Source: an uncultured Halanaerobiales bacterium (GTDB lineage: Bacteria; Bacillota; Halanaerobiia; Halanaerobiales; M55B127). From it: a DNA stretch of 64,000 bases. Under the pieces are notes generated by a model, which was not told the origin of the DNA, ran no database searches, and saw nothing but the letters and a program-made list of their open reading frames with translations. Both the position numbers and the translations under genes were made by a program. The stretch covers positions 1,736-65,735 of the forward strand of contig CAYSHP010000007.1 in the NCBI GenBank assembly GCA_964430875.1. The letters are read 5' to 3'. This document shows, piece by piece, positions 39,686 through 63,989 of this stretch (positions are counted from its first letter, which is position 1; every line of letters starts with the position of its first letter).

Positions 39686-40708
39686 TTATAACTTTCTCTT
39701 AAAGATTTCTGCTGCTTCTAAAATATCCTCTCTATTTACATCTAGATGTGTTACAGCTCTTAGTTTATCATGTAAAACACTAACTCTTAAACCATCTTCT
39801 AATAACTTTTCAGCAAACTGAGCTGAATTTTGCCCTTTTATCTTAAATATAACAATATTTGTATCCACAGTCTCGGGATCAATCTCTACTCTATCTAATT
39901 CAGCTAACTTCTCTGCTAACAGTTTTGCATTTCCATTATCTACCTTTAATCTTTCAAGATTATTTTCAAGAGCATAGATTCCACCGGCTGCAATGATACC
40001 AGCCTGACGCATAGCTCCCCCTAATCTCTGTTTCCAATACCGAGCTTCATTAATAAACTCACTTGATCCCGCCAATACTGAGCCAACAGGTGCTCCTAAT
40101 CCTTTACTTAAATCAAACCAAACCGAATCAAAGTTAGCGGCATATTTTTTTGCAGAAATACCAGTTGCTGCAACTGCATTAAAAAGCCTTGCTCCATCCA
40201 TATGGGTTTTTAAACCCAGTTCATGAGCTCTTTCGGTAAGCTTATTTATTAATTTAAGCGGCCAAACTCTGCCTCCACCTAAATTAGAGGTTTGTTCAAT
40301 TGATAAAACCTTACTCTGTGGGTCATGATAATCTTTAGTCCTAACTGCCTTTTCAAACTGATCTAATTGAAAAATACCTTTTTCACCTTCTAAACCCCGA
40401 ATGGTAGCCCCACTTATGACAGCCGTAGCTCCGCCTTCATAATGAATAGGGTGAGCACTTTGATCCATAATAACCTCATCACCAGGATTACAGTGAACAG
40501 CAAAAGAAATTTGGTTAGCCATCAATCCTGAAGGTAGATAGACTGCTTCTTCTTTACCTAAAAGTTCAGATGCCATTTCTGTTAATTTATTTACACTAGG
40601 ATCTTCAAATAACTGTTCATCACCGACTTCAGCTTCAGCCATGAATTTTCTCATCTCATCTGAGGGTCTTGTACCAGTATCACTAAATAAATCAATCTTT
40701 ATTTCCAT
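39686..40708 (-). CDS. ltaE: Low-specificity L-threonine aldolase (PLP, beta-eliminating lyase fold)
   Basis: The start is moved to ATG at 40708 (GGAGAGG 8 nt upstream). Motifs: DLFSDTGTRP, VYLPSGLMANQ, and a FDLSKGLGAP PLP-Lys region. Confidence 0.82.
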   Translation of the reverse strand: MEIKIDLFSDTGTRPSDEMRKFMAEAEVGDEQLFEDPSVNKLTEMASELLGKEEAVYLPSGLMANQISFAVHCNPGDEVIMDQSAHPIHYEGGATAVISGATIRGLEGEKGIFQLDQFEKAVRTKDYHDPQSKVLSIEQTSNLGGGRVWPLKLINKLTERAHELGLKTHMDGARLFNAVAATGISAKKYAANFDSVWFDLSKGLGAPVGSVLAGSSEFINEARYWKQRLGGAMRQAGIIAAGGIYALENNLERLKVDNGNAKLLAEKLAELDRVEIDPETVDTNIVIFKIKGQNSAQFAEKLLEDGLRVSVLHDKLRAVTHLDVNREDILEAAEIFKRKL

Positions 40709-40722
40709 AAATTTCACCTCTC

Positions 40723-41040
40723 CTAAATTAATGTGAAAATATATAAATATAACATACCTAAAAATACTGTAGTAAAGATGCTCCTTGTAAAATATGCAGT
40801 GATAAAAGTGGGTATTGCAGCTAATAGATAATGATTACTCAAAGATATATCAACTGCTCCTTCTGTAATAAAAAGAGCTGGAGCTAATAATGATGCAAGA
40901 ATAGCTGGACCTACAAACTTTAAAATTCTAACTAAAATATCAGGAATTTTAACCTTTGAAAGAAGAGTTACCGGTAACATTCGAGGAATATATGTTACTA
41001 AAGTCATACCCAATATCATTAATATATATTTAGATTGCAT
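40723..41040 (-). CDS. azlD: AzlD-family branched-chain amino acid transport protein
   Basis: 105 aa, 4 TM segments. Overlaps azlC by 11 nt. Confidence 0.8.
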   Translation of the reverse strand: MQSKYILMILGMTLVTYIPRMLPVTLLSKVKIPDILVRILKFVGPAILASLLAPALFITEGAVDISLSNHYLLAAIPTFITAYFTRSIFTTVFLGMLYLYIFTLI

Positions 41041-41734
41041 TTTCTATTACCACCCCTGCTACTGCTGCAGTTACTGTTGCCACTATTATATTCCAATTTC
41101 CCGGTAAAATAAAGTAAAAAACAATTGATAGTAATGCAGCCATGATGGAAACTACTATATCCATTTTTTCATTGATCTGTAAAATAAGTAAGATTATAAA
41201 CATAGCGGGTAGGACAAATCCAATCACAGGAATTTCAAAGTTTAATATATACCTGCCAATAATCACACCGGCCAGTGAACTAAAAACCCAGCCCAGGTAA
41301 GCACTTAAACCCATTGCTAAAAAGAAAATTCCTTTATTTTCCTCTTCATCTTTTATAAGGGTATTACCTAAAGCATAAGATTCATCAGTTATCACAAAGC
41401 CAATAATAGGAAGCAACTTTTGAGGGGTATTTTTGAAATGTAAACTTAAAGATGCACTCATTAAAATATGCCTAAGATTTACCAAAAAAGTAGTCATAAC
41501 AATTGGGATAAGAGCTGCTTGAGCAGTTAACATATTTACTGCTATAAGTTGAGATGACCCTGCAAAAACAAAAATAGACATACCAACGATAAGGTAAGGA
41601 GATAAGTCAGTCTGCAAAGCCAAAATCCCATAGCTGATTCCAATTGGCATATAACCTAAGATAACTGGTATTGATTTTTTAAAACCAGATATAATACTTT
41701 TTTTGTAGTTCAAAATAAAAAACTCCCTTCCCAT
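41030..41734 (-). CDS. azlC: AzlC-family branched-chain amino acid exporter
   Basis: 234 aa with FAGSSQ and NLRH motifs. Confidence 0.85.
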   Translation of the reverse strand: MGREFFILNYKKSIISGFKKSIPVILGYMPIGISYGILALQTDLSPYLIVGMSIFVFAGSSQLIAVNMLTAQAALIPIVMTTFLVNLRHILMSASLSLHFKNTPQKLLPIIGFVITDESYALGNTLIKDEEENKGIFFLAMGLSAYLGWVFSSLAGVIIGRYILNFEIPVIGFVLPAMFIILLILQINEKMDIVVSIMAALLSIVFYFILPGNWNIIVATVTAAVAGVVIENAI

Positions 41735-41739
41735 TAATA

Positions 41740-42507: not shown

Positions 42508-42524
42508 ATTTACACCTTCTATTT

Positions 42525-43532: not shown

Positions 43533-43555
43533 AGTTAATTCCTCCTTATGTTTTT

Positions 43556-43579
43556 CGTTATTTGTAACCTCATATAACG
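43556..43579. promoter_or_regulatory. ModE-type operator-like inverted repeat
   Basis: CGTTATTTG-N6-CATATAACG (8 of 9 positions symmetric) lies 24-47 nt upstream of the binding-protein start codon. It resembles the remembered E. coli ModE site pattern CGnTATAT-N6-ATATAnCG. An overlapping ATAACGTTAT palindrome lies at 43574-43583. Confidence 0.5.
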
Positions 43580-43596
43580 TTATTAAAAAAATAATT

Positions 43597-43964: not shown

Positions 43965-44567
43965 CTAATCATATTTGTTTTTATAATAAAGGTAATCATC
44001 ATAGTAATCTAAGTCTATGATTACCTTTTGGTTATCAATAGGATAATACTCAACTAAGTCTTTATGTTCTTCAATAAATGGTTTTAATCCCATCGGACCT
44101 TCTAACTTTTTCATTTCAGATAAGTATTTTGTACTAATAATCACCGGATGGCCCGGTTTATCATTATAAATAGGCATTATTATCTCAGAGGATGATTTTT
44201 CAAACTCACTTATAATATTATCAAATATATCTGGTGTAATCAATGGTTGATCTCCCAAAAATATTACCAAGTTTTTTGTGTTATTTGATAAATTATTAAT
44301 ACCCACTTTTAAACTACTGCTCATACCTCTGGTAAAATCAGGATTTTCTTTGATTCTAAAGCGGTTATCATCATAGTAATCTATTTTCTTTTTAACTCTC
44401 TCTGCTTCAGCACCTAAGACCACCCTGATCTCATCATCAATATATTCACTAGCTAATACATTATCAATAACTGTTTCCAGTATTGTCTTATCTTTCCAGG
44501 GTAACAGTTGTTTTAATTTTCCCATTCTATCCGCTTCACCAGCGGCTAATATAATAGCTGTATACAT
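43965..44567 (-). CDS. MobA/MocA-like molybdenum cofactor nucleotidyltransferase
   Basis: The ORF is 43965..44663. The start is moved to ATG at 44567, giving MYTAIILAAGEADRMG..KQLLPW, the NTP_transf_3 signature. This removes the overlap with the permease. Confidence 0.8.
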   Translation of the reverse strand: MYTAIILAAGEADRMGKLKQLLPWKDKTILETVIDNVLASEYIDDEIRVVLGAEAERVKKKIDYYDDNRFRIKENPDFTRGMSSSLKVGINNLSNNTKNLVIFLGDQPLITPDIFDNIISEFEKSSSEIIMPIYNDKPGHPVIISTKYLSEMKKLEGPMGLKPFIEEHKDLVEYYPIDNQKVIIDLDYYDDYLYYKNKYD

Positions 44568-44591
44568 AATAACCATCCTCTTGATTATAAA

Positions 44592-44611
44592 GGGGAGGAA
44601 ATTTCCTCCCC
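44592..44611. other. Perfect 20-nt GC-rich palindrome (intercistronic hairpin)
   Basis: GGGGAGGAAATTTCCTCCCC lies between the permease stop and the MocA start. On the minus strand only UUUAUAAU follows it. Confidence 0.4.
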
Positions 44612-44628
44612 CTTTTATATTTATATCT

Positions 44629-45951
44629 TTATAAAAACAAGAAGTATGCAATAAATACTGCACCTAATACATAAACTAATGTATTTACTTCTTTTCCTCT
44701 ACCAGTAAATAACTTAATTAGAGGGTAAATAATAAAGCCTAAAGCAATTCCATTAGAAATTGAATATGTTAAGGGCATTGCGATCATAGCAATAAAGGCT
44801 GGTAATACTTCAGTGAAATCATCCCAGTCTAAGTCACTTACATTAGTCATCATCATAGTACCTACTATAACTAAAGCAGGGGCAGTAGCTGCACCGGGCA
44901 CTAGACCAATTAATGGTCTAAAGAACAATGCTAAGAAAAATAGGATAGCAGTAACTACACCTGTTAAACCTGTTCTACCACCTTCAGCAACACCGGCAGC
45001 AGACTCAATATATGTTGTAACTGTACTGGTACCAAAGAGCGCACCACCAGTAGTACCAATCGCATCAGCCAAGAGAGCATTACTTGCTTTTGGTAGGTTA
45101 CCATCTTCATCAATATAGCCAGCCTGTTTACTTACTCCTACCAGAGTACCGGCTGTATCAAAAAGGTCAACAAATAAGAATGATAATAAGACTCCTACCA
45201 TACTTAATCTTAAAGCTGAAGCAATATCTAATTGGAATAAAACTTGGTTCCAATCAGCCATCTTAGGCATTGCAAAAATACCATTAAAAGCTGGGGTTAC
45301 ACCATTTGTCCAGCCAAAAGCTGTCGCTATTAAGATACCCCAGAGGAGTGATCCTTTTATTTTAAGGGAATGTAAAATTCCAGTTACTATTAAACCAATC
45401 AGGGCAACTAAAGCAGGCCCTGATAATAATGAACCCATACTTACTAAAGTAGCTTCATCATTAACAACGATTCCAGCATTTTGTAGTCCGATAAAAGCAA
45501 TAAATAAACCTATACCAGCACTAATACCAGTTTTTAGATTCATTGGTATAGAGTTAACTATCTTTTTCCGGACCGGCGTCACACTTAAGACAATAAAGAT
45601 TATACCTTCTATAAATATTATCCCTAAAGCGGTCTGCCAGGATACACCCATACCAATAACTACAGAATAAGCAAAAAATGCATTTAAGCCCATACCTGAA
45701 GCTAGTGCAAATGGATAATTTGTTAAGAAAGCCATCGCCAAAGTACCTAAAATAATACCAGCAATTGTAGCAATAAATACTCCATTAAAAGGCATCCCTG
45801 CTTCACTAAGGATTGATGGGTTTACAAATATAATATAAGCCATGGTTAAAAAGGTTGTAAATCCAGCAATTACCTCAGTCTTAGGATCGGTATTGTTCTC
45901 TTTAAGTTTAAATACCTTTTCCAGGAAGCCTCCGTCATTCATTTCGTTCAT
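44629..45951 (-). CDS. NCS2/AzgA-type adenine-guanine-hypoxanthine permease
   Basis: ATG at 45951 (RBS AAGGAGGG). TEVIAGFTTFLTMAYIIFVNP is the hallmark N-terminus of PbuG/GhxQ-type permeases. Confidence 0.9.
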   Translation of the reverse strand: MNEMNDGGFLEKVFKLKENNTDPKTEVIAGFTTFLTMAYIIFVNPSILSEAGMPFNGVFIATIAGIILGTLAMAFLTNYPFALASGMGLNAFFAYSVVIGMGVSWQTALGIIFIEGIIFIVLSVTPVRKKIVNSIPMNLKTGISAGIGLFIAFIGLQNAGIVVNDEATLVSMGSLLSGPALVALIGLIVTGILHSLKIKGSLLWGILIATAFGWTNGVTPAFNGIFAMPKMADWNQVLFQLDIASALRLSMVGVLLSFLFVDLFDTAGTLVGVSKQAGYIDEDGNLPKASNALLADAIGTTGGALFGTSTVTTYIESAAGVAEGGRTGLTGVVTAILFFLALFFRPLIGLVPGAATAPALVIVGTMMMTNVSDLDWDDFTEVLPAFIAMIAMPLTYSISNGIALGFIIYPLIKLFTGRGKEVNTLVYVLGAVFIAYFLFL

Positions 45952-46043
45952 CAAATTCCCTCCTTATTAATGATAAGTCTTAATTTAGATAAATATTGAA
46001 GATAATCTTACACTTATTTTCCCTTTTAACACCTCCTCTTAAA

Positions 46044-47759
46044 TTAATCGCCTACTCCTAGGGAAACAAATTTATTCTCATCAATATCAAATAAACCTTG
46101 GTCAGTTATTTTTAAAGAAGGAATTACTGGTAAAGCCATGAAAGACAAGGTCATAATGGGACTCTGACGAGTTACCCCCATCGAATATACCTTTTCTTTC
46201 ATCTTCTTTAATTTTTTTGCTACTTCAGGTATTGAATCTTTAGACATCAAACCGGCAATTTCTAAAGAAAGACAGTCTAATAGTTTACCATCTTCAACTA
46301 CAGCAATACCACCCTGTAATTTCTCTATTTCTTTGACTGCTTTATACATATCTTTTGAATTTAAGCCAACCACAATAATATTATGTGAATCATGGCCAAT
46401 AGAAATAGCTATTGCTCCTTTACGGAGTCCAAAACCTTTGAGTAATCCTAAACCAACATTCCCGGTTTTTTTATGTCTTTCAACTACAGCTATTTTTACT
46501 AAGTTATTAGCAACTAAATCATCAATTTTTACTTTCTCATCAAATTTTATAATTTCTTTATCAGTTACTATTTGATCTTTTATTAAGCTCATCACACGAT
46601 ACTCTTTAAAATCGGGTAAATTGAAGTCCTGTTTTTTTAACTTACCAATATTAACTGATTTAAATATTTTTTCCGATTTTCCTTCTTTTATTTCAGGTAA
46701 ATTTACAATTAAGCTCTCATTTTCTGCTACAAGTCGACCATCTTTAAAGACTTTTTCTATATTAAAGTCTTTTAGATTATCAAGAATAACTAAATCTGCT
46801 TTATAGCCAGGCGCAATCGCACCCACATTATTTAAACCCAAAGCCTTAGCAGAATTAATAGTCGCTAATTTGATAGCCCTTAACGGTGAGATACCATTTT
46901 GAATTGCCTTTTTGATCACAAAGTTAATATGACCGTTTTCATATAAGTCTTCAGGGTCCCTGTCATCTGTGGCAAATAAAAATCTAGATAAATTACTATT
47001 ATTTACAGCCGGTAGTAAGTTCACGAGATCTCGTGTTACTGAGCCCTCTCTGATCATAACATACATACCCTTTGTTACTTTTTCAATTGCTTCCTCAGGT
47101 TCAGTACATTCATGATCTGCCATTATACCCCCAAGCAGATAAGCATTAAGTGCTTTGCCGCTGACCCCAGGGGCGTGCCCATCGATGAATTTATCACCAA
47201 TCATATCTATTTTTCCCCAAATGTTTTTATCTCCTTTGATCACTCCAACAAAATCCATTACTTCACCTAAACCAAAGATCCCTTCTTTGTCTTTAAGTTT
47301 AGCTAATTTATCGGCTGTTAACACAGCTCCAGAAGTTTCATTAGAGGTAGCAGGTACACAGGAGGGAAGCATTAAATTAAAGTTCCAGGGTAGCTTTGTC
47401 CCGCGGTCTAGAAAATATTTGATTCCATCTAAACCCGCTACATTAGCAATTTCATGTGGATCTGCAAACACAGTTGTGGTGCCTCTTGGCACTATCCAAG
47501 CTGCAAATTCATCCACTCTAACCATAGCACTTTCAAAATGAAGGTGCCCATCTATAAAACCAGGTGCAATAATATTTTCTTCAAAATCAATCTCCTTTAC
47601 CCCTTCATAATCACCAATACCAATTATCTTACCATCTGCAATTGCAATATCTTCTCTAATTAAGCGTTCATTAAACACATCAACTATTCTTCCGTGCTTT
47701 AAGACTAATTCCGCGGGTATTTCACCCTTAGCCATTTTTAAAATTCTATTGTTAATCAA
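46044..47759 (-). CDS. ade: Adenine deaminase
   Basis: 571 aa. PGFIDGHLHFES, DPHEIANV, DGHAPG and HDSHNIIVVG motifs. Confidence 0.9.
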   Translation of the reverse strand: MINNRILKMAKGEIPAELVLKHGRIVDVFNERLIREDIAIADGKIIGIGDYEGVKEIDFEENIIAPGFIDGHLHFESAMVRVDEFAAWIVPRGTTTVFADPHEIANVAGLDGIKYFLDRGTKLPWNFNLMLPSCVPATSNETSGAVLTADKLAKLKDKEGIFGLGEVMDFVGVIKGDKNIWGKIDMIGDKFIDGHAPGVSGKALNAYLLGGIMADHECTEPEEAIEKVTKGMYVMIREGSVTRDLVNLLPAVNNSNLSRFLFATDDRDPEDLYENGHINFVIKKAIQNGISPLRAIKLATINSAKALGLNNVGAIAPGYKADLVILDNLKDFNIEKVFKDGRLVAENESLIVNLPEIKEGKSEKIFKSVNIGKLKKQDFNLPDFKEYRVMSLIKDQIVTDKEIIKFDEKVKIDDLVANNLVKIAVVERHKKTGNVGLGLLKGFGLRKGAIAISIGHDSHNIIVVGLNSKDMYKAVKEIEKLQGGIAVVEDGKLLDCLSLEIAGLMSKDSIPEVAKKLKKMKEKVYSMGVTRQSPIMTLSFMALPVIPSLKITDQGLFDIDENKFVSLGVGD

Positions 47760-47813: not shown

Positions 47814-48902
47814 TTACTCTAATTTTAATGCACCAAAGTTACAACGGGTGATACATAGTCCACAGCCTGCACATTTATCAGGATCGATGACAATATAGTC
47901 TCTACTTTCATTATATGAAATAGCATCATATACACAACTGGTGATACATAAGCCACAAGTGGTACAGTTTTCTTCAATTACTGTTGGTACAACTGTATTA
48001 AAGTTAGCTTCTTCTTTAACCACCTGAGCAGTTAAACCTTTAATATCATTTACACTTTCATATCCATTTTCATCTAAGAATTTATTTAATTCTTCATTTA
48101 TTTTCTTATAGACACTAGGACCATTTACAATAGCTTCTGTACAAACCTGTACAGCAGATGCTCCAGCCATAAACATCTTGGCAGCTCTTAAGCCGCTATC
48201 AATACCACCTACACCAATAACAGGAATATCAACATTATTGGAGGCTTGGTAAACTGCTCTTAAGGCCAGTGGGAATATAGCTTCACCTGATAGCCAGCCA
48301 AATCCATTGTCACTACCCATTACTGGTTTTCCAGTTTTGGGATCAATATCTAAGGTTGGGCCAAAGGAATTAATCAATACAATACCATCTGCACCAGCTT
48401 CTTCAGCCGCTTTAGCAAATTCTGGTATGTCAATTCCCGGACTTAATTTAACGAAAACTGGAATATCGACTTCATCTTTAGCTGCTTTAATACTTTCTTC
48501 CATGGGAGTTGTGTCATCACCTAAATAGTGAGTAGAAAGTTCTAAAGCATCTGCATACTTTTCTACCTTTTTAGCTAACTCTCTAATTTGATCTTTTGTA
48601 TAACCAATACCTGCTATAACGGGTAAGCCTAATTCTCTAATCACAGGATATTCCTCTTCTAGCCAATGTTCTGGAGTTAGTTCGGACCATAGTTCAGTAT
48701 TTAAGAAACCACCTTTTATTCTAGCCATGTTTGGTCTCGGTACTTTAGCAGCCGTAGTAGAGATAGTCTTTGTAACGATTGCACCAGCCCCACCATTTTT
48801 GGCTCTTTTTGCTGCTTTTGCATCTTTAACTGGCGGACCGGCCGCCGGCATAACGGGATTATCTAATTCAATTCCTGCAAATTCTACTTTTAAATCAGCC
48901 AT
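47814..48902 (-). CDS. DHOD/DPD-like FMN oxidoreductase with C-terminal 2x[4Fe-4S] ferredoxin domain (PreA-like)
   Basis: ATG at 48902 (RBS GAGGAGTG). The TIM-barrel DHOD family N-terminus reads FAGIELDNPVMPAAGP. C-terminal CTTCGLCITSC and CAGCGLCITRC motifs. Confidence 0.85.
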   Translation of the reverse strand: MADLKVEFAGIELDNPVMPAAGPPVKDAKAAKRAKNGGAGAIVTKTISTTAAKVPRPNMARIKGGFLNTELWSELTPEHWLEEEYPVIRELGLPVIAGIGYTKDQIRELAKKVEKYADALELSTHYLGDDTTPMEESIKAAKDEVDIPVFVKLSPGIDIPEFAKAAEEAGADGIVLINSFGPTLDIDPKTGKPVMGSDNGFGWLSGEAIFPLALRAVYQASNNVDIPVIGVGGIDSGLRAAKMFMAGASAVQVCTEAIVNGPSVYKKINEELNKFLDENGYESVNDIKGLTAQVVKEEANFNTVVPTVIEENCTTCGLCITSCVYDAISYNESRDYIVIDPDKCAGCGLCITRCNFGALKLE

Positions 48903-48907
48903 CAATA

Positions 48908-54453: not shown

Positions 54454-55821
54454 TTATTTACTTAAAAGATCTTGCGCAATCTGATTGTGTTTCTTTATTA
54501 CATTATATTCTTTAATAGTTGTTAATTCTCCTTTTCGAACTACAACTTTACCGTCCACTATATTGTAATCTACTTCTTGAGTAGTGCCTGTATTTACTAA
54601 TGCTTCAACCGGATCACTTTGCCCACCTGCAAAACCTAACCTATCACTTCTAACCATGAAAAGGTCAGCAGCTTTACCTTCTTCAATACTGCCTATTTCT
54701 GGTTGGTTAAGTACATCTCTACCTCCATTAGTGGCAATAGATAATACATCTTCAGAAGATATACTTTTAATACCATGAATCAATTTATGCAGTAGATAGG
54801 CAAGCTTTAACTCTAAAATCATATTAGAGGCATCATTACTAGCACTACCATCAACTGCTAGACTAACCGGTACATTCTTTTTAAGCATATACGGAATCTT
54901 AGCTGCTCCCGAAGATAACTTCATATTTGAAGCAGGGCAGTGGGAAACACCCGTACCTGTTTCGGCTAGTTTTACTATTTCAAATTCATTAAAATGCACT
55001 CCATGGGCAAACCAGACATCTTTACCAATCCAACCCCATTCTTCCATCAAATCTAAGGGTCTTTTACCAAAGGTATCAACACAGTATTGGTTTTCATCTT
55101 GAGTTTCAGCAAGATGAGTATGGCTTAATACATTGTTTTTTCTAGCCAATTTTATTGATTCAACCATTAGGTCTTCTGAAACAGAAAAAGGTGAACACGG
55201 TGCTAATACTACCCTCTGCATTGCATATTTGCTATCATCATGGAATTTATCAATTACTCTCTGGGAATCATTTAAGATTTCATCTTCACTTTGTACAACC
55301 GAAGCAGGTGGTAATCCACCATCTTCTTCACTTAACGACATACTACCCCTGCTACCATGAAATCTAATACCGATTTCTTTAGCAGCTTTAAACTGATAAT
55401 CCATTAAATTATCAGGTTGGCTTTCGGGAAAGACATAAAAATGATCCACACTGGTAGAACAACCTGTCTTTAAAAGTTCTGCTGATGCTAATAATGTACT
55501 ATAGTATACTGCTTCCGGTGTTAGGTTAGACCAGATTGGATAAAGGAATTTAAGCCAGTTAAACAGCTCAACTCCTTGTGCTTCAGGAATATTGCGGGTT
55601 AAGGTCTGGTAGAAGTGATGGTGGGTATTTATTAAGCCGGGAAAGGCGAAATAGTTCCCGGCTTCAATTATCTCATCAACTTCATCTTCGCCTATATCAA
55701 TATTATCATCAATTGTTTTTATTTTTTTATCTTCAATTAAGATATCAGTGTTTTTATAACGGTTTCTTTTTTCATCCATCGTGATTAACTCTTTAATGTC
55801 TCTAATTAAAATTTTAGACAT
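54454..55821 (-). CDS. COG0402 amidohydrolase, guanine/8-oxoguanine deaminase-like
   Basis: The start is moved to ATG at 55821 (GGAG inside the upstream stop region), giving MSKILIRD. Motifs: NTHHHFYQTLTR, HTHLAE, HGVH, AVDGSASND. Confidence 0.82.
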   Translation of the reverse strand: MSKILIRDIKELITMDEKRNRYKNTDILIEDKKIKTIDDNIDIGEDEVDEIIEAGNYFAFPGLINTHHHFYQTLTRNIPEAQGVELFNWLKFLYPIWSNLTPEAVYYSTLLASAELLKTGCSTSVDHFYVFPESQPDNLMDYQFKAAKEIGIRFHGSRGSMSLSEEDGGLPPASVVQSEDEILNDSQRVIDKFHDDSKYAMQRVVLAPCSPFSVSEDLMVESIKLARKNNVLSHTHLAETQDENQYCVDTFGKRPLDLMEEWGWIGKDVWFAHGVHFNEFEIVKLAETGTGVSHCPASNMKLSSGAAKIPYMLKKNVPVSLAVDGSASNDASNMILELKLAYLLHKLIHGIKSISSEDVLSIATNGGRDVLNQPEIGSIEEGKAADLFMVRSDRLGFAGGQSDPVEALVNTGTTQEVDYNIVDGKVVVRKGELTTIKEYNVIKKHNQIAQDLLSK

Positions 55822-55822
55822 T

Positions 55823-56299
55823 TTATTCACTCCTGTCTTTGTTAACAACACTTTCAATCGCTTCTATGATTTGTTGATAACCGGTACATCTACAGAGATT
55901 ACCCTCTATAGCAGTTTTAATCTCTTCTCTATCAGGATCCGGCTTTTCATTGAGTAATGCCTTTGCCGACATTAACATACCGGGTGTACAAAAACCACAC
56001 TGTACGGCTTGATGGTCGATAAATGCTTCTTGTAAAGGATCTAGCTTACCATCGATCTCTAATCCTTCCACAGTTAAGACTTCACTGCCATCAATCTGGA
56101 AAGTGTAGACCATACAGGAGTTAACCGCTTTGCCATCTAAAACTACTGTACAGGCTCCACATTCACCTATACTACAGCCTTCTTTAACTCCTGTCAGGTG
56201 TAATCTGTCTCTTAAGGTATCAAGTAGTCTTTCATCTGACGGAACTTTTATATTATGTTCTTTGCCATTAACGGTTAAGGTTACATTAACTTCTTCCAT
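55823..56299 (-). CDS. Xanthine dehydrogenase-type [2Fe-2S] subunit
   Basis: 158 aa. CSIGECGACTV and CGFCTPG..CRCTGY. Confidence 0.95.
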   Translation of the reverse strand: MEEVNVTLTVNGKEHNIKVPSDERLLDTLRDRLHLTGVKEGCSIGECGACTVVLDGKAVNSCMVYTFQIDGSEVLTVEGLEIDGKLDPLQEAFIDHQAVQCGFCTPGMLMSAKALLNEKPDPDREEIKTAIEGNLCRCTGYQQIIEAIESVVNKDRSE

Positions 56300-56301
56300 T
56301 A

Positions 56302-57171
56302 TTACTGCACCTCCTTAACTATTGACTGGAGGGCTCTCTTTAATAGATTACCAACAACAGGTCTTTTATAAGGAGTAGACCATCTTTCACCTGTAATACC
56401 GACCATTTCCTCGCTGGTTTTTTCAGCTAATTGTTCATAATCTATGGCTGAGAGGTCAGCTCCTGCAAGTTCTTTTTCAATTTCTTTAAATCTTGTAGCA
56501 GTAGGAGTAGCAGAGCCAAATGCTACCCTAATATCATTAAATTTATTGTCTTTAACTTTGGTAATTACAGCTAAATTAATTCTAGCTATAGCAACAGCCT
56601 GACGTCTTTTTACCTTTTGATAACAATCATAGTATTCGTCCTGTATATATGGTACCTTTACTTCCGTCATTATTTCATCTTCTTTACGGTCAGTACAATA
56701 AGGACCAGTAATAAATTCACTTAAAGGTAGTTCCCTCTTGCCGTGACTGGAATGTAAAACCACCGAAGCATCAAGAGCAATTAGGGCAGTTACTAAATCA
56801 GCTGCGGGTGAAGCATTATTGACATTACCGCCCACCGTTCCTCGATTTCTAATTTGGGTAGAGCCGATAACTTCCGCTGCTTTTTGTAAGATAGGAAACT
56901 TTTCATTTATTAATACGGAGTCCATAATTTCACTGTGAGTAACTAAAGCTCCCAGCCTTAAATACTCTCCGTTATCTTCTATAACATCTAAACCGGAAAT
57001 AGCGCTAATATCTAAAAGATACTTCATCTCTTTTAGATCATCACTTTCATGATGAATCTGTACTAACATATCGGTTCCACCGGCAACCATTTTCACTTCG
57101 TTTTTCTTATCAGCTAGTATATCTATAGCTTCATCTAGACTATTGGCCTTTAACGCTTCAAATTCTATCAT
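56302..57171 (-). CDS. Xanthine dehydrogenase-type FAD-binding subunit
   Basis: 289 aa. VAGGTDMLV and TVGGNV. Confidence 0.9.
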   Translation of the reverse strand: MIEFEALKANSLDEAIDILADKKNEVKMVAGGTDMLVQIHHESDDLKEMKYLLDISAISGLDVIEDNGEYLRLGALVTHSEIMDSVLINEKFPILQKAAEVIGSTQIRNRGTVGGNVNNASPAADLVTALIALDASVVLHSSHGKRELPLSEFITGPYCTDRKEDEIMTEVKVPYIQDEYYDCYQKVKRRQAVAIARINLAVITKVKDNKFNDIRVAFGSATPTATRFKEIEKELAGADLSAIDYEQLAEKTSEEMVGITGERWSTPYKRPVVGNLLKRALQSIVKEVQ

Positions 57172-59465
57172 TTATGATCAACCCCTTTGTGTAAGTCCTT
57201 GCCCACAATGATTTTTTCGAGGTTAAGAGGTAATGATCTAATCCTCTTTTTAGTTGCATTAGCAACAGCATTAGCAATTGCAGCTGCTCCTAATTCAAGG
57301 GTAGGTTCACCAATTGATTTAGCTCCAAAAGGACCGTTTGGATCTGGATTTTCAACAATAATTGGCTCTATATCGGGCATATCTTTGACAGTCGGTATCA
57401 TATATTCATCAAAGTTAGTGTTTTCTATATATCCTTGATCTGTTTCTATTTCTTCCATAACACCATAACCTAAGCCCATGGAAACACCGCCATAGATTTG
57501 TCCTTTAACATTAGCGGGGTTAATAGCGCGTCCTACATCATGGGCAGCTGTCATGTTTAATACATCTATTTCACCGGTGCCAGTATCAACTTCAACTTCA
57601 GCGACCTGACATCCATAGACATAAGTGAAATAGGGGCGACCATGGCCAGTTTCTTCATCCCAAGAAATATCAGGGGATACATACCAACCATAGGTAGTCA
57701 GATAAACACCTTCCATAGCGGCTTTAGAAGCCATTTCATTAATACTCATAATCTCAACATCTTTTTGACCATAAATAGAGCCATCTTTGATATAGATATC
57801 TTCTTTATCTTGGTCATATTTATCTGAAATATATTCTTTTATCTTTTCAATTAAATTATCAGCAGCTTTCTTAACAGCATTACCACCGATTAGAGTTGCC
57901 CGCGAAGCAACTGTTGAACCACTATCCGGTGAAATTAAGGTGTCAACCTGCATAAAGTTAATCTTATCAGTATCTAAACCTAATGCTTCCGCAGCCATCT
58001 GACAGTAGACAGTTTTAAGTCCCTGTCCGTTTTCTGCTAAGCCAGAATAAAGGCTTACACTACCGTCTTTTTTAAGTGATAAGATAATACCAGCTGCATC
58101 GATTGCTTCTGCACCTAAACTACAACCTCTAAAACTAATAGAAAGTCCAATACCTTTTTTCTTATCACCGGGTTGTTCTTTACTATATTCTTTATATTTT
58201 TCAACAAAGTTACTTTTTTCTACTGCCTTTGTTAATACTTCTTCTAAACTAACTTCATGATTATCAAGTTTTTGTCCACTGGCTGTAAATGAGTTATTAT
58301 GGTAGATATTTTTCATCCTCAATTCAACTGGATCCATATCTAACTCATCTGCTAGTTCATCCATCAAGGATTCCTGTGCAAAGATAACCTGTGGAGAACC
58401 ATAACCACGCATCGCACCTGTGTATACATTATTTGTATAGTATCCATAAGTATCTGTTTTAACATTATCTACTTCATAAGGACCTGTGGCCTGTACTACA
58501 GATCTCCAGGTTACAAAAGGAGTCTGGCAGGCATAGGCTCCACTGTCTGCAACAGCTTCAATTTCCATAGCCTGAATCTTGCCATCTTCAGTTGCACCTA
58601 TCTTATACTTCATATGATAGGGATGTCTTTTATAACTTTCTTTAATAGATTCATCTCGACTATTTACAAGTTTTATAGGCCTTTCAGTTTTTAAAGCTAA
58701 AACTGAAGCTCTAGCGGCCATAGATGAAATAACTTCATCCTTACCTCCAAAAGAACCGCCCATATGGTTTTGAACAATTCTTACCTTATTTAAGTCTTCC
58801 TGTAAAACGGTTGCTACTGCATTTTGGGTAGCAAAAGGATTTTGAACTGAACCATAAACGGTGACAGTTGAATTTTCTTGATAAGGAACTGCAACTACCG
58901 CTTCCGGTTCAATATATGACTGTTCAATAAAGGGAGTATCATATTCCCTTTCTATAATTACATCTGAGTTTTCAAAACCTTTTTTCGGATCTCCTTTTCT
59001 CAAAGGGTGATGGATGACTTGATTGTCTTCTAAATCTTCATGTACTAACTGTGCATCTTCTTCTCTTGCCTCTAAAGGGTCATATATACCTTCTAACTCT
59101 TCATATTCCACCTCAATCTTTTCAGCTGCTTTAGCAGCCTGCTTAGCTGTTTCAGCTGCAACTACGGCTATACCATCACCTATATATAATGCTTTTTCTT
59201 TAGCTAGCACTTGTTGATTTTCAATAATTACACCAAATTCATTATTAGGTATATCGGCGGCTGTAATTACTGCTACTACGCCCGGCATTTTTTCCGCGTT
59301 TGTAGTATCTATACTCTTGATCTTCGCATAAGGATATTCAGTATGAAGAACTTTTCCATAAAGCATATCTGGAAATCTCATATCTGCTCCATACTTTGCT
59401 TTACCGGTTACTTTTTCGTAAACATCTACTCTTTTTTCTGATTTGTTTACATGTGCAAACTCCAT
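57168..59465 (-). CDS. Xanthine dehydrogenase-type molybdopterin subunit (full length)
   Basis: 765 aa. GGSFGGKDE, GAMRGYG and SIGEPTL motifs. Confidence 0.95.
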   Translation of the reverse strand: MEFAHVNKSEKRVDVYEKVTGKAKYGADMRFPDMLYGKVLHTEYPYAKIKSIDTTNAEKMPGVVAVITAADIPNNEFGVIIENQQVLAKEKALYIGDGIAVVAAETAKQAAKAAEKIEVEYEELEGIYDPLEAREEDAQLVHEDLEDNQVIHHPLRKGDPKKGFENSDVIIEREYDTPFIEQSYIEPEAVVAVPYQENSTVTVYGSVQNPFATQNAVATVLQEDLNKVRIVQNHMGGSFGGKDEVISSMAARASVLALKTERPIKLVNSRDESIKESYKRHPYHMKYKIGATEDGKIQAMEIEAVADSGAYACQTPFVTWRSVVQATGPYEVDNVKTDTYGYYTNNVYTGAMRGYGSPQVIFAQESLMDELADELDMDPVELRMKNIYHNNSFTASGQKLDNHEVSLEEVLTKAVEKSNFVEKYKEYSKEQPGDKKKGIGLSISFRGCSLGAEAIDAAGIILSLKKDGSVSLYSGLAENGQGLKTVYCQMAAEALGLDTDKINFMQVDTLISPDSGSTVASRATLIGGNAVKKAADNLIEKIKEYISDKYDQDKEDIYIKDGSIYGQKDVEIMSINEMASKAAMEGVYLTTYGWYVSPDISWDEETGHGRPYFTYVYGCQVAEVEVDTGTGEIDVLNMTAAHDVGRAINPANVKGQIYGGVSMGLGYGVMEEIETDQGYIENTNFDEYMIPTVKDMPDIEPIIVENPDPNGPFGAKSIGEPTLELGAAAIANAVANATKKRIRSLPLNLEKIIVGKDLHKGVDHK

Positions 59466-59577
59466 TAAAACACCTCCATTTTTTAATCTTAAACAGAACT
59501 TTCTTATTTCCTGTTTTCTTTTTATATCACTTTTAATTACTAGTTAGTTTATATGTTTAGTCATATATCTCAATTTC

Positions 59578-59586
59578 ATTATATCA
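59578..59586 (-). promoter_or_regulatory. Extended -10 promoter element (TGATATAAT) upstream of the xdh-type operon
   Basis: The minus strand reads GTGTGATATAAT about 110 nt upstream of the Mo-subunit ATG. The -35 element is poor (TTAAAA). Confidence 0.45.
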
Positions 59587-59623
59587 CACTAAAAACAATA
59601 TTTTTAATATTTCCCGTCTTTTC

Positions 59624-60991
59624 TTAACATTCAATACGTTTTTCTTTTCGGGGTAAAAGTAAGTTAAGTAAGATAGCACTTATAGCACCAACAGTTATTC
59701 CAGATGATAAAACTGTAGAAAGTATATTAGGTAACTTACTCACTATATCTGGCCTAAAAGTTACTCCTAAGCCGACACTTAAAGCTATTGAAAGGATAAA
59801 AATCTTACGATCTGTTAAACCACCCCTTACAATTATTTTCATACCAGAAGTAGCTACCATACCGAATAAAGCTATAGTTGCTCCTCCCAGAACAGGTTTA
59901 GGCATCACACTAATTAAAGCACCAATTTTAGGTAAAAGTCCTAAAATTACCAGGATCCCTGCCACTGCATAACCAACTACTCTACTGCCCACCTTGGTCA
60001 TTTGAATAACTCCCACATTTTGACTAAAGGTAGTATTAGGCATTGTGTTAAAGATTGCCGCGATGGCTGAACCTACACCATCAGCCAGGATACCCCCACT
60101 GATTCTTTCTCGATAAAGGTCACCTTCAACAGGTTCTCCAGAAACTTCTGAAATCGCAGTTAAGTCTCCAATTGATTCAATTGATGTAATAATATAAGCT
60201 ATAATCCAGGGCAATAAATGTGATATTCTAAAGGACATTCCAAATTTAAATGGTACAGGAACTGTAAACCAGCCAGCATCAGCGACAGGCTGAAAATCAA
60301 CTATACCTAAAGGTATTGAAACTATATAACCTGCTACTAAACCAATAGCTACTGCTCCTACCTTGATTAAACCATTTCCAAATCTATTTGCAATTACAAT
60401 AATTACTAGAACAAAGGTACCTAATAATAGATTTTGAACACTTCCAAAGTTTTCAGCACCTACTCCTCCACCAAAATCCGTTATACCAACTTCCATTAAA
60501 CCTAAACCAATAAGCATAACCACTACACCTGTTACTACAGGTGGAAAAAGTTTTTTAGTTTGTTTAATAAATCTACTAATTACCATTTCCACAGGAGAAG
60601 CTGCTAAAGCCATCCCTAAGACCAAGGCTAAACCACCAGTATTAACAGCTGAAATAGCCATTGGCACAAAAGTGAAGCTAGTACCATGTACACCTAACAA
60701 ACCAGATCCTACTGGTCCAAATTTACGACATTGAATATAAGAAGCTACCCCTGAAACAATAAGGGCCATATTAACAAAAAAAGCTGATTCAGCTGCATTT
60801 AATCCGGCTGCTCCGGCAATAATTAGAGGTGGTGTAATTATACCTACAAACATAGCTAACATATGTTGAAATCCCAATAGGATAGTTTCACCCGTAGGTG
60901 GTCTATCTTCTAATTCATAATATGCTTCCTCTTCGACCACAGTTTCATATTCCTGTTCTTTTGCTTTTTGGTCCTCTACTTTTTTACTCAT
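59624..60991 (-). CDS. NCS2 uracil/xanthine/uric-acid permease
   Basis: The start is moved to ATG at 60991 (RBS AAAGGAGAG). 12-14 TM segments, with a TFSQNVGV motif typical of xanthine/urate NCS2 carriers. Confidence 0.9.
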   Translation of the reverse strand: MSKKVEDQKAKEQEYETVVEEEAYYELEDRPPTGETILLGFQHMLAMFVGIITPPLIIAGAAGLNAAESAFFVNMALIVSGVASYIQCRKFGPVGSGLLGVHGTSFTFVPMAISAVNTGGLALVLGMALAASPVEMVISRFIKQTKKLFPPVVTGVVVMLIGLGLMEVGITDFGGGVGAENFGSVQNLLLGTFVLVIIVIANRFGNGLIKVGAVAIGLVAGYIVSIPLGIVDFQPVADAGWFTVPVPFKFGMSFRISHLLPWIIAYIITSIESIGDLTAISEVSGEPVEGDLYRERISGGILADGVGSAIAAIFNTMPNTTFSQNVGVIQMTKVGSRVVGYAVAGILVILGLLPKIGALISVMPKPVLGGATIALFGMVATSGMKIIVRGGLTDRKIFILSIALSVGLGVTFRPDIVSKLPNILSTVLSSGITVGAISAILLNLLLPRKEKRIEC

Positions 60992-61033
60992 ATTAACTCT
61001 CCTTTTTATAATATTCAAAAATTTTTTAAATGG

Positions 61034-61060
61034 AGAAAAAACGGAGATGATATCTCCGCT
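61034..61060 (-). terminator. Intrinsic terminator after ygeW, about 45 nt upstream of the permease start
   Basis: Minus strand CGGAGAU-AUC-AUCUCCG followed by UUUUUUCUCC. Confidence 0.8.
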
Positions 61061-61170
61061 TTTATTTGTATGAAATTAATGATAATGGTAAGTAAACTTT
61101 AAGTAGTATTTTTTAGAAGATTATTGCTATTAAAGTAATCTTTTTGTATAGAAAATATTTATATTAACGA

Positions 61171-62154: not shown

Positions 62155-62174
62155 CTTATTATTCCTCCTTGAAA

Positions 62175-63416
62175 TTATTCAACAATATTTTTGGTTATTT
62201 CAGGCATTTTATTAGCATAGTCATTTACATAAATTGATGGTATCAATGCATAGAAAGCGGCTGCTTTTACTAATTCATCTTTCCAGGTTTTTTCATTAGG
62301 AGCATGTGCCTGATCTTCATGCCCAGGTCCAAAACCTATACAAGGAATTCCATGTCTTCCCATAATTGAAACCCCATTAGTAGAAAAAGTCCATTTGTCA
62401 ACTAAGGGTTCATCATCAAATAATTTTTTATAAGAATCAACAAGAGTATCACAAACTGGGTGATCCTCTTCAATTACCCAGGTTGGAAAATAGGATTCAA
62501 TTGGATAACTTAGTCCAGTATAGGAAGGTCTTTCATACTCATACATCTCAACATCAGCCTTGGCTTCTTTAACTGAAGGTAAGTTTCTTATTTGTTGTAG
62601 AGCAAATTCCCAGGTTTCACCGGCTGTTAGTCTTCTATCAATTGAAATTGAACAGCCGTCAGCTACTGCACACCTAGATGGTGAGCTAAAAAATATCTCA
62701 GAAACGGTTAATGTACCTTTGCCTAAAAACTCATCATATTTTAGATTCTCATTTAATGCCTTTAACTCATTAATAATAGGTGCCATCTTATAAATAGCAT
62801 TATCTCCCCGGCTCGGAGCTGATCCATGACAGCTAACACCGTGTGTGGTTACCTTAATTTCCATCCGACCGCGGTGCCCGCGATATATGTTACAAGAAGA
62901 TGGTTCGGTAATAACCACAAATTCAGGTCTAATATCTTCTTCTTCAATCATATAATGCCAGCAGAGACCATCACAATCTTCTTCCTGGACAGTACCGGTT
63001 ACTACTAAAGTATAATCATCTTCTAAGCCTAAATCTTTAATAATCTTTCCAGCATAAACCATAGAAGCCATTCCGCCTTCCTGGTCACTAGCACCTCTAC
63101 CTCCAATTACTTCATCATCTTCATAGCCTTCTAAGGGGTCAAAGTCCCAGAGCTCTTCATCCCCTAAACCAACGGTATCTATATGGGCATCCATAGCAAT
63201 CAGATGATCTCCATGTCCTATGTATCCTAGTACATTCCCCATATCATCAATTTCAACTTTATCAAAACCTACTTTTTCCATTTCTTCTTTTATTCTCAAA
63301 ATAACATCTTTTTCCTGACAGCTTTCACTTGGAATCGCTATCATATCTCTTAAAAATTTTGAAATATCTGGACGATATTTTTCAGCTTGTTTTAAAATTT
63401 CCGAAAAATCTTTCAT
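62175..63416 (-). CDS. ygeY: YgeY-type M20 peptidase/amidohydrolase
   Basis: 413 aa. An M20 metal-ligand pattern ([21 protein letters not shown]) in the YgeY context next to ygeW. Confidence 0.82.
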
Positions 63417-63449
63417 CTTTATATAACCTCCATTATTGATAATTGATAA

Positions 63450-63989
63450 TTAAAAGTTTGGTGGTGTAATAGCTGAAATAAATACAAGATCTTCTTTTCC
63501 AATACTGGTTATTTTATGAGGAAGGTTGGCATTATAATAAATACTGTCACCCTTATCTAACTCATATCTTTCACTACCAATTGTAATTTGCATCTTTCCT
63601 TGAATGACAATACTTACTTCTTCACCATTATGGGATAATGGTTTCTCTAAAGTACTAGCTCCCGGCTCAAGTCTTGCTTCAATCATCTCAATATCGTGGT
63701 CGAGATCAGGTGATATTAGTTCAAAGGTTAAATTAGAACCTGGAAATCTAAGTACTTTTCTATCTTCTTTTCTAACTACTGCATTGTGTTTTTGATCTTC
63801 AATTAAAAAGTAAAATATCGGTACATTTAATGCTTTTGATATCTCCCTTAAAGCTGTTATAGAGGGTTCAGCTAAGCCTCGTTCAACCTGACTTAAATAA
63901 CTAGAGGTTTTGCCAATCTTTTCTGCTAATACCGATAGGCTGAGACCTTGAGTTTTTCTTATATTTCTAATCTTTTCACCCATCTTCAT
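63450..63989 (-). CDS. XRE-HTH / cupin-domain transcriptional regulator
   Basis: 179 aa. N-terminal HTH (LSLSVLAEKIGKTSSYLSQVERG) and a C-terminal cupin (GEEVSIVIQGKM..GDSIYYNANLPHK). Confidence 0.85.
   Translation of the reverse strand: MKMGEKIRNIRKTQGLSLSVLAEKIGKTSSYLSQVERGLAEPSITALREISKALNVPIFYFLIEDQKHNAVVRKEDRKVLRFPGSNLTFELISPDLDHDIEMIEARLEPGASTLEKPLSHNGEEVSIVIQGKMQITIGSERYELDKGDSIYYNANLPHKITSIGKEDLVFISAITPPNF

Follow-up and report, generated by a model that had tools for sequence, protein, structure and literature searches.

Does the long minus-strand gene run at one end of this DNA encode a route for the anaerobic degradation of urate and other purines, and if it does, which proteins do the work of the Escherichia coli genes that are not found in it? 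The window, by which we mean the whole analysed stretch of 64,000 nt from an uncultured Halanaerobiales bacterium (GenBank assembly GCA_964430875.1, contig CAYSHP010000007.1), contains between positions 39686 and 63989 what the initial annotation called an anaerobic purine/urate supercluster related to the E. coli ygeW-ygfU region. We found that the locus is a genuine purine/urate catabolic supercluster, conserved across the Halanaerobiales. We think it probable that the region forms the core of the purine-catabolic regulon of this organism and encodes a variant of the reductive urate pathway through 2,8-dioxopurine ("yanthine"). The features that make it a variant are a UacX-type reductase, a short carbamoyltransferase without a linked carbamate kinase, two molybdenum (Mo) hydroxylases of new clades that carry flavin adenine dinucleotide (FAD) subunits, an unlinked hydantoinase, and a pair of pyridoxal 5'-phosphate (PLP) enzymes in the position of the diaminopropionate ammonia-lyase YgeX. 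Gene identities, synteny, operon anatomy and the complementary distributions of the PLP pair and YgeX were obtained by direct analysis.

The reductive pathway was reconstituted by two studies in 2025 (bioRxiv 10.1101/2025.04.24.650524; PMC12507026), and the statement in the initial annotation that several steps are biochemically unassigned is therefore out of date. In these studies urate is converted to 2,8-dioxopurine by XdhD-YgfM or XdhAC, and this to dihydro-2,8-dioxopurine by YgfK or UacX. SsnA then yields ureidomethylhydantoin and HyuA 2,3-diureidopropionate. YgeW produces a mono-ureido intermediate and carbamoyl phosphate, with YqeA making ATP (UacY being the alternative), YgeY forms 2,3-diaminopropionate, and YgeX forms pyruvate.

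All 24 open reading frames (ORFs) listed between 39686 and 63989 were present on the minus strand, and the description of their spacing as mostly below 100 nt was accurate: intergenic distances range from -59 to +90 nt, with the exception of 152 nt between the carbamoyltransferase gene and pbuX and 158 nt between pbuX and the first Mo subunit. Overlaps of 1-4 nt join MoL1/FAD1, FAD2/FeS2, MoN2/MoC2, MoC2/NTPase and NTPase/UacX-like. Co-directionality is in itself uninformative, since GC skew is negative across the whole window, the minus strand carries about nine tenths of the ORFs of the 64 kb, and the same-strand run reaches from 29923 to at least 9.4 kb beyond the window end, exceeding the cluster on both sides; the signal is functional coherence. 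In this respect the proposed relation to the E. coli region held: YgeY and SsnA score above their family cut-offs, and MocA, the XanQ/UacT-like and GhxQ-like permeases and the Xdh-type subunits all find their counterparts (Table 1). The COG0402 amidohydrolase, a member of the 8-oxoguanine deaminase family, shares only 24% identity with E. coli GuaD, and it always adjoins ssnA in Halanaerobiales and Atribacterota.

About 20 genes form a syntenic block in the mapped Halanaerobiales loci, including those of the cultured Halanaerobium sp. MA284 and H. polyolivorans. A third cultured relative with the cluster is Orenia metallireducens; the Orenia cluster is related, with a rearranged gene order. 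The nearest genomes are uncultured Halanaerobiales metagenome-assembled genomes (MAGs), in which SsnA is 89% identical, and the records of relatives mention Salar de Ascotan soil, the Soudan site, and isolate codes starting with GSL and Tobar. Metagenome contigs encode an identical YgeY protein, and contig L002, 99.98% identical to window positions 57720-64000, runs 9.4 kb past position 64000. The sequence surveyed beyond the cluster was the window plus this extension, 73 kb in total.

The initial annotation had placed ygeX, carbamate kinase, ygfK, yqeB/yqeC and selD possibly past 64 kb, and none of them is in the next 9.4 kb. Searches of the 73 kb by tblastn with ygeX, yqeA, yqeB, yqeC and ygfK queries returned no orthologue, and SelD, which was not a query, did not turn up in the family scans of the ORFs. 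YqeB homologues are found in the clusters of relatives L029, L047, L055, L057 and L063. The extension carries two PLP enzymes, the CysK-like PALP491 and the threonine-synthase-like PALP416, followed by unrelated genes. Upstream of the pair are an OsmC gene, a terminator and a 248-nt AT-rich spacer. On the other side the cluster regulator, with an XRE helix-turn-helix and a cupin domain, is translationally coupled to PALP416, its ATG overlapping the PALP416 stop by 1 nt. This regulator is cut by the window edge and measures 184 aa at full length in L002; position 63989, taken earlier as its start, is an internal Met. Pfam assigns HTH_3/HTH_31 and Cupin_2 to the identical gene, which is kept at the cluster head in Halanaerobiales and is also present in L092 and L095. 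The first transcription unit is PALP491-PALP416-regulator-YgeY-carbamoyltransferase-terminator, and the supercluster extends about 2.75 kb beyond the window.

The single clear terminator that had been noted at about 61034-61060 was confirmed as a hairpin with a T6 tail at 61036-61058, read from 61058 to 61036, in the gap that separates the carbamoyltransferase stop (61171) from the pbuX start. The terminator scanner called this hairpin on the plus strand, and the minus-strand reading gives the stem followed by T6. A second, weaker hairpin with a T-poor tail (GGGGGAGGAAATTTCCTCCCC; 44592-44612) lies between the AzgA-type permease gene and mocA. A promoter-like site, a consensus match only, precedes the operon of Mo hydroxylase 1 and SsnA.

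Relative to YgeX, the PLP pair occupies the same cluster niche, adjoining YgeY and the carbamoyltransferase, and belongs to the same fold-type II (PF00291) superfamily. The pair is, however, not orthologous to YgeX: PALP416 shows 22% identity (E = 6e-7), PALP491 gives no match, two proteins are present rather than one, and the nearest solved relatives are threonine synthase for PALP416 and CysK/CBS for PALP491. The distributions of the two solutions are complementary. Of 80 genome loci centred on SsnA, 23 had a pair member and 3 a YgeX orthologue, with no overlap. In 48 metagenome loci centred on PALP491, each 9 kb or longer, the neighbours were PALP416 (25 loci), carbamoyltransferase (22), hydantoinase (15), Mo hydroxylase (15), YgeY (14), carbamate kinase (12), SsnA (10) and YgeX (0). 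The pair was found within SsnA clusters of Halobacteroidaceae, Clostridiales, Atribacterota and Pseudomonadota. In the E. coli-like cluster L158, which holds YgeW (67%), YgfK, XdhD, HyuA, YgeY (77%) and SsnA, the pair adjoins YgeY and there is no YgeX. Even isolated PALP491 homologues still adjoin an M20 gene (L162) or a hydantoinase and a THEP1-like nucleoside triphosphatase (NTPase; L102). These complementary distributions, and the embedding of the pair in purine clusters, argue for non-orthologous displacement of YgeX. A published neighbourhood survey counted any PF00291 protein near ssnA as "YgeX", and because of this scoring it would have merged the two solutions.

The alternative that survives best holds that the two PLP genes are ordinary threonine and cysteine synthase neighbours, with YgeX elsewhere in the genome. 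PALP416 is nominally just above the NCBIfam threonine synthase cut-offs (309 vs 303 and 223 vs 167), the public names of PALP491 are generic ("cysteine synthase"), and the visible genome amounts to only 73 kb. In addition, an unlinked pathway gene has a precedent: the carbamate kinase of C. sporogenes is reported to lie at another place on the chromosome. Against this stands the loss in PALP416 of the Arg of the motif NPxR[IL]EGQKT, which is invariant in four solved threonine synthases and which we take to be a ligand of the substrate phosphate. It is replaced by Met (NPYMVEGKKT), STGNT has changed to STGNA and GNAGNI to GDGCTI, and the Arg is missing in 62 of 62 PALP416 homologues of the fetched purine loci. 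Threonine synthase was accordingly ruled out as the identity of PALP416 on its motifs, despite the hidden Markov model scores. PALP491 for its part matches CysK, its best solved relative, at only about 1e-16, has an extension of about 100 aa at each end, and is 73-77% identical across Halanaerobiales, Atribacteria, Aerophobetes and Synergistales. Finally, the pair lies inside the purine clusters of several phyla, is coupled to the cluster regulator, and shows zero co-occurrence with YgeX. We therefore regard the biosynthetic explanation as unlikely.

We return to displacement of YgeX. That the Arg-lacking threonine-synthase-like enzyme and the extended CysK-like enzyme form an unrecognised terminal module replacing YgeX in Halanaerobiales, Atribacterota, Synergistales and other mostly non-gut lineages is a proposal whose chances we judge to be evenly balanced. 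The module may, for example, carry out a beta-elimination or a beta-replacement, acting either on 2,3-diaminopropionate or on the beta-ureido amino acid albizziin itself, and its product is possibly other than pyruvate. A structure search gave PALP491 no functional resolution, because the AlphaFold model is moderate (pLDDT 70, with active-site loops of low confidence) and the Foldseek matches are of the generic CysK/CBS type: CysK, CBS, beta-cyanoalanine synthase and O-ureidoserine synthase. No diaminopropionate ammonia-lyase was among the 50 Foldseek matches listed.

On a Synergistales contig (L086, 6187-16966) we observed an M20 paralogue, a PALP416-like enzyme, a serine-hydroxymethyltransferase-like PLP enzyme, PALP491, a TRAP transporter, YgeY (79%), a short carbamoyltransferase (73%) and a Bmp ABC transporter. 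This module is without Xdh or SsnA. Since the pair here accompanies YgeY and the carbamoyltransferase in their absence, we assign it to the lower half of the pathway, in which the ureido groups are cleaved. The same module suggests that some organisms may take up a ureido or hydantoin intermediate that others release, and break it down.

The neighbours of the pair in the first operon fit this half of the route. YgeY is reported to take off the last ureido group, giving 2,3-diaminopropionate (PMC12507026). The carbamoyltransferase had been named YgeW, and that name stands only in part: it belongs to a sister clade of YgeW and carries YgeW-type motifs, but it is not the TIGR03316 equivalog, scoring 183-193 bits with the YgeW models against cut-offs of 453-500. 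Its best score is with the ornithine carbamoyltransferase (OTC) model TIGR00658 (247 bits vs 281). It retains the carbamoyl-phosphate motifs STRTR and HPxQ. The ornithine-loop DxxxSMG is lost, PKNWGSW replacing DVWVSMG, HALP stands in place of HCLP, and PK[NS]W and MH[AC]LPAD are common to the short form and YgeW. An identity as OTC (ArgF/ArcB) was ruled out on these motifs. In Anaerosalibacter an 80% identical copy stands in the order YgeX-YgeY-carbamoyltransferase-carbamate kinase. We therefore regard the protein, on the grounds of shared motifs, sister clade, Anaerosalibacter context and absence of the ornithine loop, as a short-form functional counterpart of YgeW that probably phosphorolyses 2,3-diureidopropionate to carbamoyl phosphate. 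The literature also uses a broader marker, a PF00185 protein in the neighbourhood, and the protein is of that family.

The hyuA homologue, which had been located about 30 kb away, is indeed 30 kb from ssnA and 17 kb from the cluster edge. Its orthologues, 40-46% identical, are part of the cluster itself in L030, Orenia L047 and L048, and this stand-alone hydantoinase is the probable HyuA equivalent by similarity and context. A phoU terminator hairpin (AGAGCCTATC...GATAGGCTTTTCTTTTT; window 22684-22763) lies only about 15 nt before the hydantoinase ribosome-binding site, leaving no room for an obvious hydantoinase promoter.

For ring reduction, the initial annotation had listed ygfK as missing and, separately, a PreA-like reductase; that reductase matches UacX, the published YgfK substitute. 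It is below the cut-offs of both PyrD (213 vs 269) and PreA (184 vs 335), lies five genes from ssnA, and has orthologues, 53-54% identical, adjoining ssnA in Anaerosalibacter and C. tetanomorphum. We liken it to C. difficile UacX by the architecture and position described for that protein, and consider it a candidate 2,8-dioxopurine reductase. Because its domain architecture and its place beside ssnA agree with that description, we regard YgfK as replaced rather than missing. The role of SsnA, ring opening of the reduced 2,8-dioxopurine, is taken from PMC12507026. Three Hadarchaeota MAG contigs (L075, L079 and L081) carry SsnA homologues (42-43%) and UacX-like reductases (48-51%), with a hydantoinase in two of the three. 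From their presence there, the ring-reduction and ring-opening core may extend to archaea.

Two Mo hydroxylases are candidates for the reduction of urate. The first has three subunits and belongs to a clade that also includes Halanaerobium and Atribacterota; its Mo-FAD-FeS-deaminase-SsnA block is kept in Atribacterota. The second has four, its Mo subunit being split into halves that overlap by 4 nt, and among solved proteins the N-terminal half is closest to NdhL, from the nicotinate dehydrogenase of E. barkeri (3HRD_A, 324 bits). The split subunit is kept in Halanaerobiaceae, in one Atribacterota locus and in L063, and is a single ORF in Orenia and L048; this conservation shows that the split is not an artefact. 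In a neighbour-joining tree of Mo subunits, in which C. sporogenes XdhAC was not included, both enzymes form clades of their own, apart from E. coli XdhD and apart from the FeS-fused enzymes of SsnA clusters (Anaerosalibacter, C. tetanomorphum, Orenia and others), with which C. sporogenes XdhAC would be expected to group. The catalytic-Glu motif is of the xanthine dehydrogenase (XDH) type, GEP, in both and E[IL] in the XdhD-clade and FeS-fused enzymes. The XdhD E606 marker falls in an insertion that is confined to the XdhD clade and that both enzymes lack, and for this reason the marker is not transferable. Urate-reductase and XDH roles were not separable by phylogeny, active-site motifs or the E606 marker. 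We weakly favour the three-subunit enzyme as the putative urate reductase, because it stands at the position of the fused enzyme in Orenia and travels with the deaminase and SsnA in Atribacterota; the split enzyme would then be an XDH or purine hydroxylase.

These enzymes also bear on a second alternative, that the locus serves mainly salvage and interconversion (adenine to hypoxanthine to xanthine, and xanthine to urate and back), with purines as an electron sink and no full mineralisation. Two XDH-type enzymes with canonical GEP motifs, no recognisable enzyme of a DOPDH clade (DOPDH being the urate-reducing Mo hydroxylase, XdhD or XdhAC), and the local absence of carbamate kinase, YgeX and a linked hydantoinase all agree with such a role. 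However, SsnA, YgeY, the carbamoyltransferase and the UacX-like reductase are ring- and ureido-cleavage enzymes without a part in salvage, and they are co-operonic with the Mo enzymes and conserved together with them. Moreover, DOPDH function occurs in at least two Mo-subunit clades, demonstrated for E. coli XdhD and deduced from context for the FeS-fused Firmicute clade, which makes the clade a weak predictor. We consider the salvage explanation very unlikely.

The Rabinowitz "xanthinase" fermentation (xanthine to 4-ureido-5-imidazolecarboxylate, aminoimidazole, formiminoglycine and glycine) would have the adjacent amidohydrolases act on imidazoles and the aldolase link to glycine. Its markers, according to Tong et al. 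2023, reportedly are a prenylated-flavin (prFMN; UbiD/UbiX) decarboxylase, an imidazolone hydrolase and a glycine formiminotransferase. Two amidohydrolases directly after an XDH-type enzyme, a PLP aldolase at the cluster tail and a host that is an environmental anaerobe, where the route is said to occur (PMC12990295), fit this fermentation, but it was rejected as highly improbable: one amidohydrolase is a true SsnA above cut-off, YgeY, the YgeW-like carbamoyltransferase and the UacX-type reductase have no role in it, and NCBIfam/Pfam scans of every ORF of at least 90 aa in the annotated gene run contained no UbiD/UbiX-type decarboxylase, imidazolonase or formiminotransferase.

The preferred reading, the variant reductive pathway, can be set out as a sequence of steps, every one of which we infer, as we do the division of roles between the Mo enzymes and the chemistry of the PLP pair. 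Bases would be taken up by the NCS2 xanthine/urate permease and the AzgA-type permease, and funnelled to urate by adenine deaminase, the 8-oxoguanine-deaminase-family enzyme (guanine-type bases to urate or xanthine) and one FAD-containing Mo hydroxylase. MocA would supply the cytidylated Mo cofactor. The other Mo hydroxylase would convert urate to 2,8-dioxopurine, and the reductase, containing flavin mononucleotide (FMN) and Fe-S centres, would dearomatise this product. SsnA would open the ring and the remote hydantoinase would yield 2,3-diureidopropionate. The two ureido groups would be taken off by the short carbamoyltransferase and YgeY, and the amino-acid product would reach a central metabolite through the PLP pair at the operon head, in place of YgeX.

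Several observations weigh against this reading. Carbamate kinase and YqeB/YqeC are absent from the 73 kb, and SelD is unseen in the ORF family scans. Neither Mo hydroxylase falls in the XdhD or the FeS-fused Firmicute clade, and both have the canonical XDH-type motif. The hydantoinase is unlinked, and its score is just under the family cut-off. Some PALP491 homologues have few or no purine genes nearby, and YgeX could lie elsewhere in these genomes. The organism is uncultured, and the roles of its genes are predicted only.

No shared regulatory element emerged for the cluster. A Rfam scan of the whole window for purine, xanthine or NMT1 riboswitches ahead of pbuX or the operons found none at threshold inside the cluster; the sole Rfam matches were c-di-GMP-I and fluoride riboswitches, both outside it. 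A motif search for an operator common to the cluster promoters and the remote hydantoinase returned ribosome-binding sites only. An exact 16-mer (TTAATATAAATATTTT) lies upstream of PALP491 (L002:6600-6620) and of pbuX (window 61152-61167, minus strand). It is AT-only and not enriched (5 near-matches vs 2.3 expected), and may be chance or an operator half-site.

Of the remaining cluster genes, that of the THEP1-like NTPase is flanked by those of the Mo-C subunit and the reductase in most mapped Halanaerobiales loci; L029 is without it. A PF03266 NTPase, an uncommon family, is also found directly after a PALP491 homologue, beside a hydantoinase, in the unrelated contig L102 (11563-12099). Beyond MocA, a ModE-like regulator with an ABC pair had been proposed. 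A ModE domain, a binding protein and an ATPase are there, but the ModE protein consists of the N-terminal domain only, the binding protein is of the Peripla_BP_2 (iron/cobalamin) class and not ModA, and no permease gene for the pair was found at 41740-43962 or nearby, AzlC and AzlD following directly. ModE and the binding protein are kept at the same position in Halanaerobiales relatives, and in L030 AzlC again directly follows the binding protein; AzlCD may or may not serve as the membrane part for the binding protein and ATPase. AzlCD and the threonine aldolase, counted by the initial annotation among the contents of the purine cluster, are present, and we found no evidence that links them to purine catabolism.

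Downstream of the aldolase, a four-gene BMP-family (PnrA-like) ABC transporter possibly imports nucleosides or purines and could be part of the supercluster; transporters of the Bmp type are found again next to SsnA, carbamoyltransferase or PALP491 genes in L027, L061, L063, L086 and L117. Next to it we observed genes for a pseudouridine-5'-phosphate glycosidase, a PfkB kinase and an aldo-keto reductase fused to a 4Fe-4S domain, and together with the transporter the pseudouridine genes suggest nucleoside scavenging beside the purine cluster. A fluoride-response unit, in which the fluoride riboswitch stands upstream of a CPA2-type antiporter and a DUF190 protein, separates the BMP transporter from the pseudouridine genes. 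The c-di-GMP-I riboswitch stands upstream of a methyl-accepting chemotaxis gene, with many GGDEF/HD-GYP and che genes around it.

Table 1. Positions and supporting evidence for the features discussed; coordinates refer to the window unless prefixed L002, and scores are followed by the cut-off.
Feature	Coordinates	Strand	Evidence and remarks
PALP491, CysK-like PLP enzyme, 491 aa	L002:6665-8140		Family scan
PALP416, threonine-synthase-like PLP enzyme, 416 aa	L002:8163-9413		Family scan
XRE-HTH + cupin transcriptional regulator	63450..64000	-	5' end 4 nt past window; PuuR best NCBIfam model, 83 bits, below cut-off
YgeY, M20 hydrolase	62175..63416	-	TIGR03526 729 bits vs 321.5
Short YgeW-related carbamoyltransferase, 327 aa	61171..62154	-	Below cut-off for every model
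Intrinsic terminator closing first operon	61036..61058	-	CGGAGAT-atc-ATCTCCG then TTTTTT; 7-bp GC-containing stem, 3-nt loop, T6
NCS2 xanthine/urate permease (PbuX/XanQ/UacT-like)	59624..61018	-	TIGR03173 463 bits vs 414; likely ATG 60991
Promoter-like site, extended -10	59578..59607	-	TTAAAA-18-TATAAT, TG upstream
Mo hydroxylase 1, three-subunit	55823..59465	-	Mo 57168-59465, FAD 56302-57171, 2x[2Fe-2S] 55823-56299; XdhA/B/C-type, all sub-equivalog
COG0402 amidohydrolase, 8-oxoguanine deaminase family	54454..55857	-	NF006055 587 bits vs 532
SsnA, ring-opening amidohydrolase	53110..54447	-	NF005540 563 bits vs 444; TIGR03314 (IPR017700) 530 vs 455
Mo hydroxylase 2, four-subunit	49486..53168	-	FAD 52263-53168, 2x[2Fe-2S] 51784-52266, Mo-N 50472-51842, Mo-C 49486-50475
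THEP1-like NTPase	48908..49486	-	PF03266 98 bits
UacX-like reductase	47814..48911	-	PF01180 dihydroorotate-dehydrogenase-fold FMN domain + 2x[4Fe-4S] (Fer4)
Adenine deaminase	46044..47759	-	TIGR01178 614 bits vs 472
AzgA/GhxQ-type purine permease	44629..45954	-	PF00860 161 bits
MocA, molybdenum cofactor cytidylyltransferase	43965..44663	-	TIGR03310 169 bits vs 186 (just under); PF12804; likely ATG near 44567
ModE N-terminal-domain-only regulator, 121 aa	43597-43962	-	Family scan
Peripla_BP_2 binding protein	42525-43532	-	Pfam
ABC ATPase	41740-42507	-	Family scans
AzlC	41030-41734	-	Pfam
AzlD	40723-41040	-	Pfam
Threonine-aldolase-type PLP enzyme	39686-40717	-	Family scans
BMP-family (PnrA-like) ABC transporter, four genes	34732..39595	-	Family scans
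Fluoride riboswitch	34650-34716	-	41.9 bits vs 34
CPA2-type antiporter	33408-34601
DUF190 protein	33053-33433
Pseudouridine-5'-phosphate glycosidase	31940-32857	-	Indigoidine_A
PfkB kinase	31042-31938	-
Aldo-keto reductase fused to 4Fe-4S	29923-31038	-
Stand-alone D-hydantoinase/dihydropyrimidinase	21292..22683	-	TIGR02033 (IPR011778) 391.3 bits vs 393.25
c-di-GMP-I riboswitch (GGC variant)	15449-15527	-	71 bits vs gathering 59
Methyl-accepting chemotaxis gene	13040-15112

Solved as late as 2025, the anaerobic urate pathway has been treated for the most part as a trait of the gut with relevance to gout. The locus described here is a complete-looking and well-conserved version of the pathway in free-living halophilic fermenters, and related cores are also seen in Atribacterota, Caldisericota, Synergistales and Hadarchaeota MAGs. 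Together they bear on a question raised in PMC12990295: is this an ancient, environmental pathway or an adaptation to the gut? A literature search for earlier work on purine use by Halanaerobium found none. The PLP module and the new-clade Mo hydroxylases matter for predicting uricolytic capacity from metagenomes and for engineering the pathway, and the locus is prone to misnaming: PALP416 invites the name threonine synthase, PALP491 cysteine synthase, the carbamoyltransferase (by best score) ornithine carbamoyltransferase, and the reductase (by best score) dihydroorotate dehydrogenase. For these genes, in this context, none of the four names is likely to be right.

Compared with known systems, Mo hydroxylase 2 resembles the E. 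barkeri nicotinate dehydrogenase (3HRD) in its Mo subunit, split into about 450 + 330 aa, and in its FAD and 2x[2Fe-2S] subunits. It differs in standing in a purine rather than a nicotinate context, and its orthologue is unsplit in Orenia and L048. Purinolytic clostridia have a four-subunit purine hydroxylase of comparable architecture.

The cluster of C. difficile (XdhD-like, UacX, SsnA, HyuA, UacY, YgeY, YgeX; Li et al. 2025, PMC12507026) is alike in using a UacX-type reductase for YgfK, in its SsnA and YgeY orthologues, in the nucleobase permeases within the cluster, and in belonging to a Firmicute anaerobe. C. difficile uses the amidohydrolase UacY where the Halanaerobiales locus has a carbamoyltransferase, and its XdhD is reportedly without an FAD subunit (PMC12507026), whereas both Mo hydroxylases here have one. 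Here, in addition, the hydantoinase is unlinked, a thrC-like/cysK-like pair is present and YgeX is not, and adenine and 8-oxoguanine-type deaminases, the NTPase and MocA/ModE are integrated.

In comparison with E. coli, no homologue of ygfK, ygeX, yqeA, yqeB, yqeC or ygeV is present here, an XRE-cupin regulator stands in place of a sigma-54 activator, the carbamoyltransferase is of the short sister clade, and the Mo enzymes are of other clades, without the XdhD-specific insertion that bears E606. The two systems nevertheless share homologues of ygeY (73% identical), ssnA (35%), hyuA (34%), ygeW (36%), mocA (33%), xanQ and uacT (40% and 33%, both for the NCS2 permease), ghxQ (36%) and the xdh-type subunits, and both combine permeases, a deaminase, Mo hydroxylases and ring cleavage in the same general scheme.

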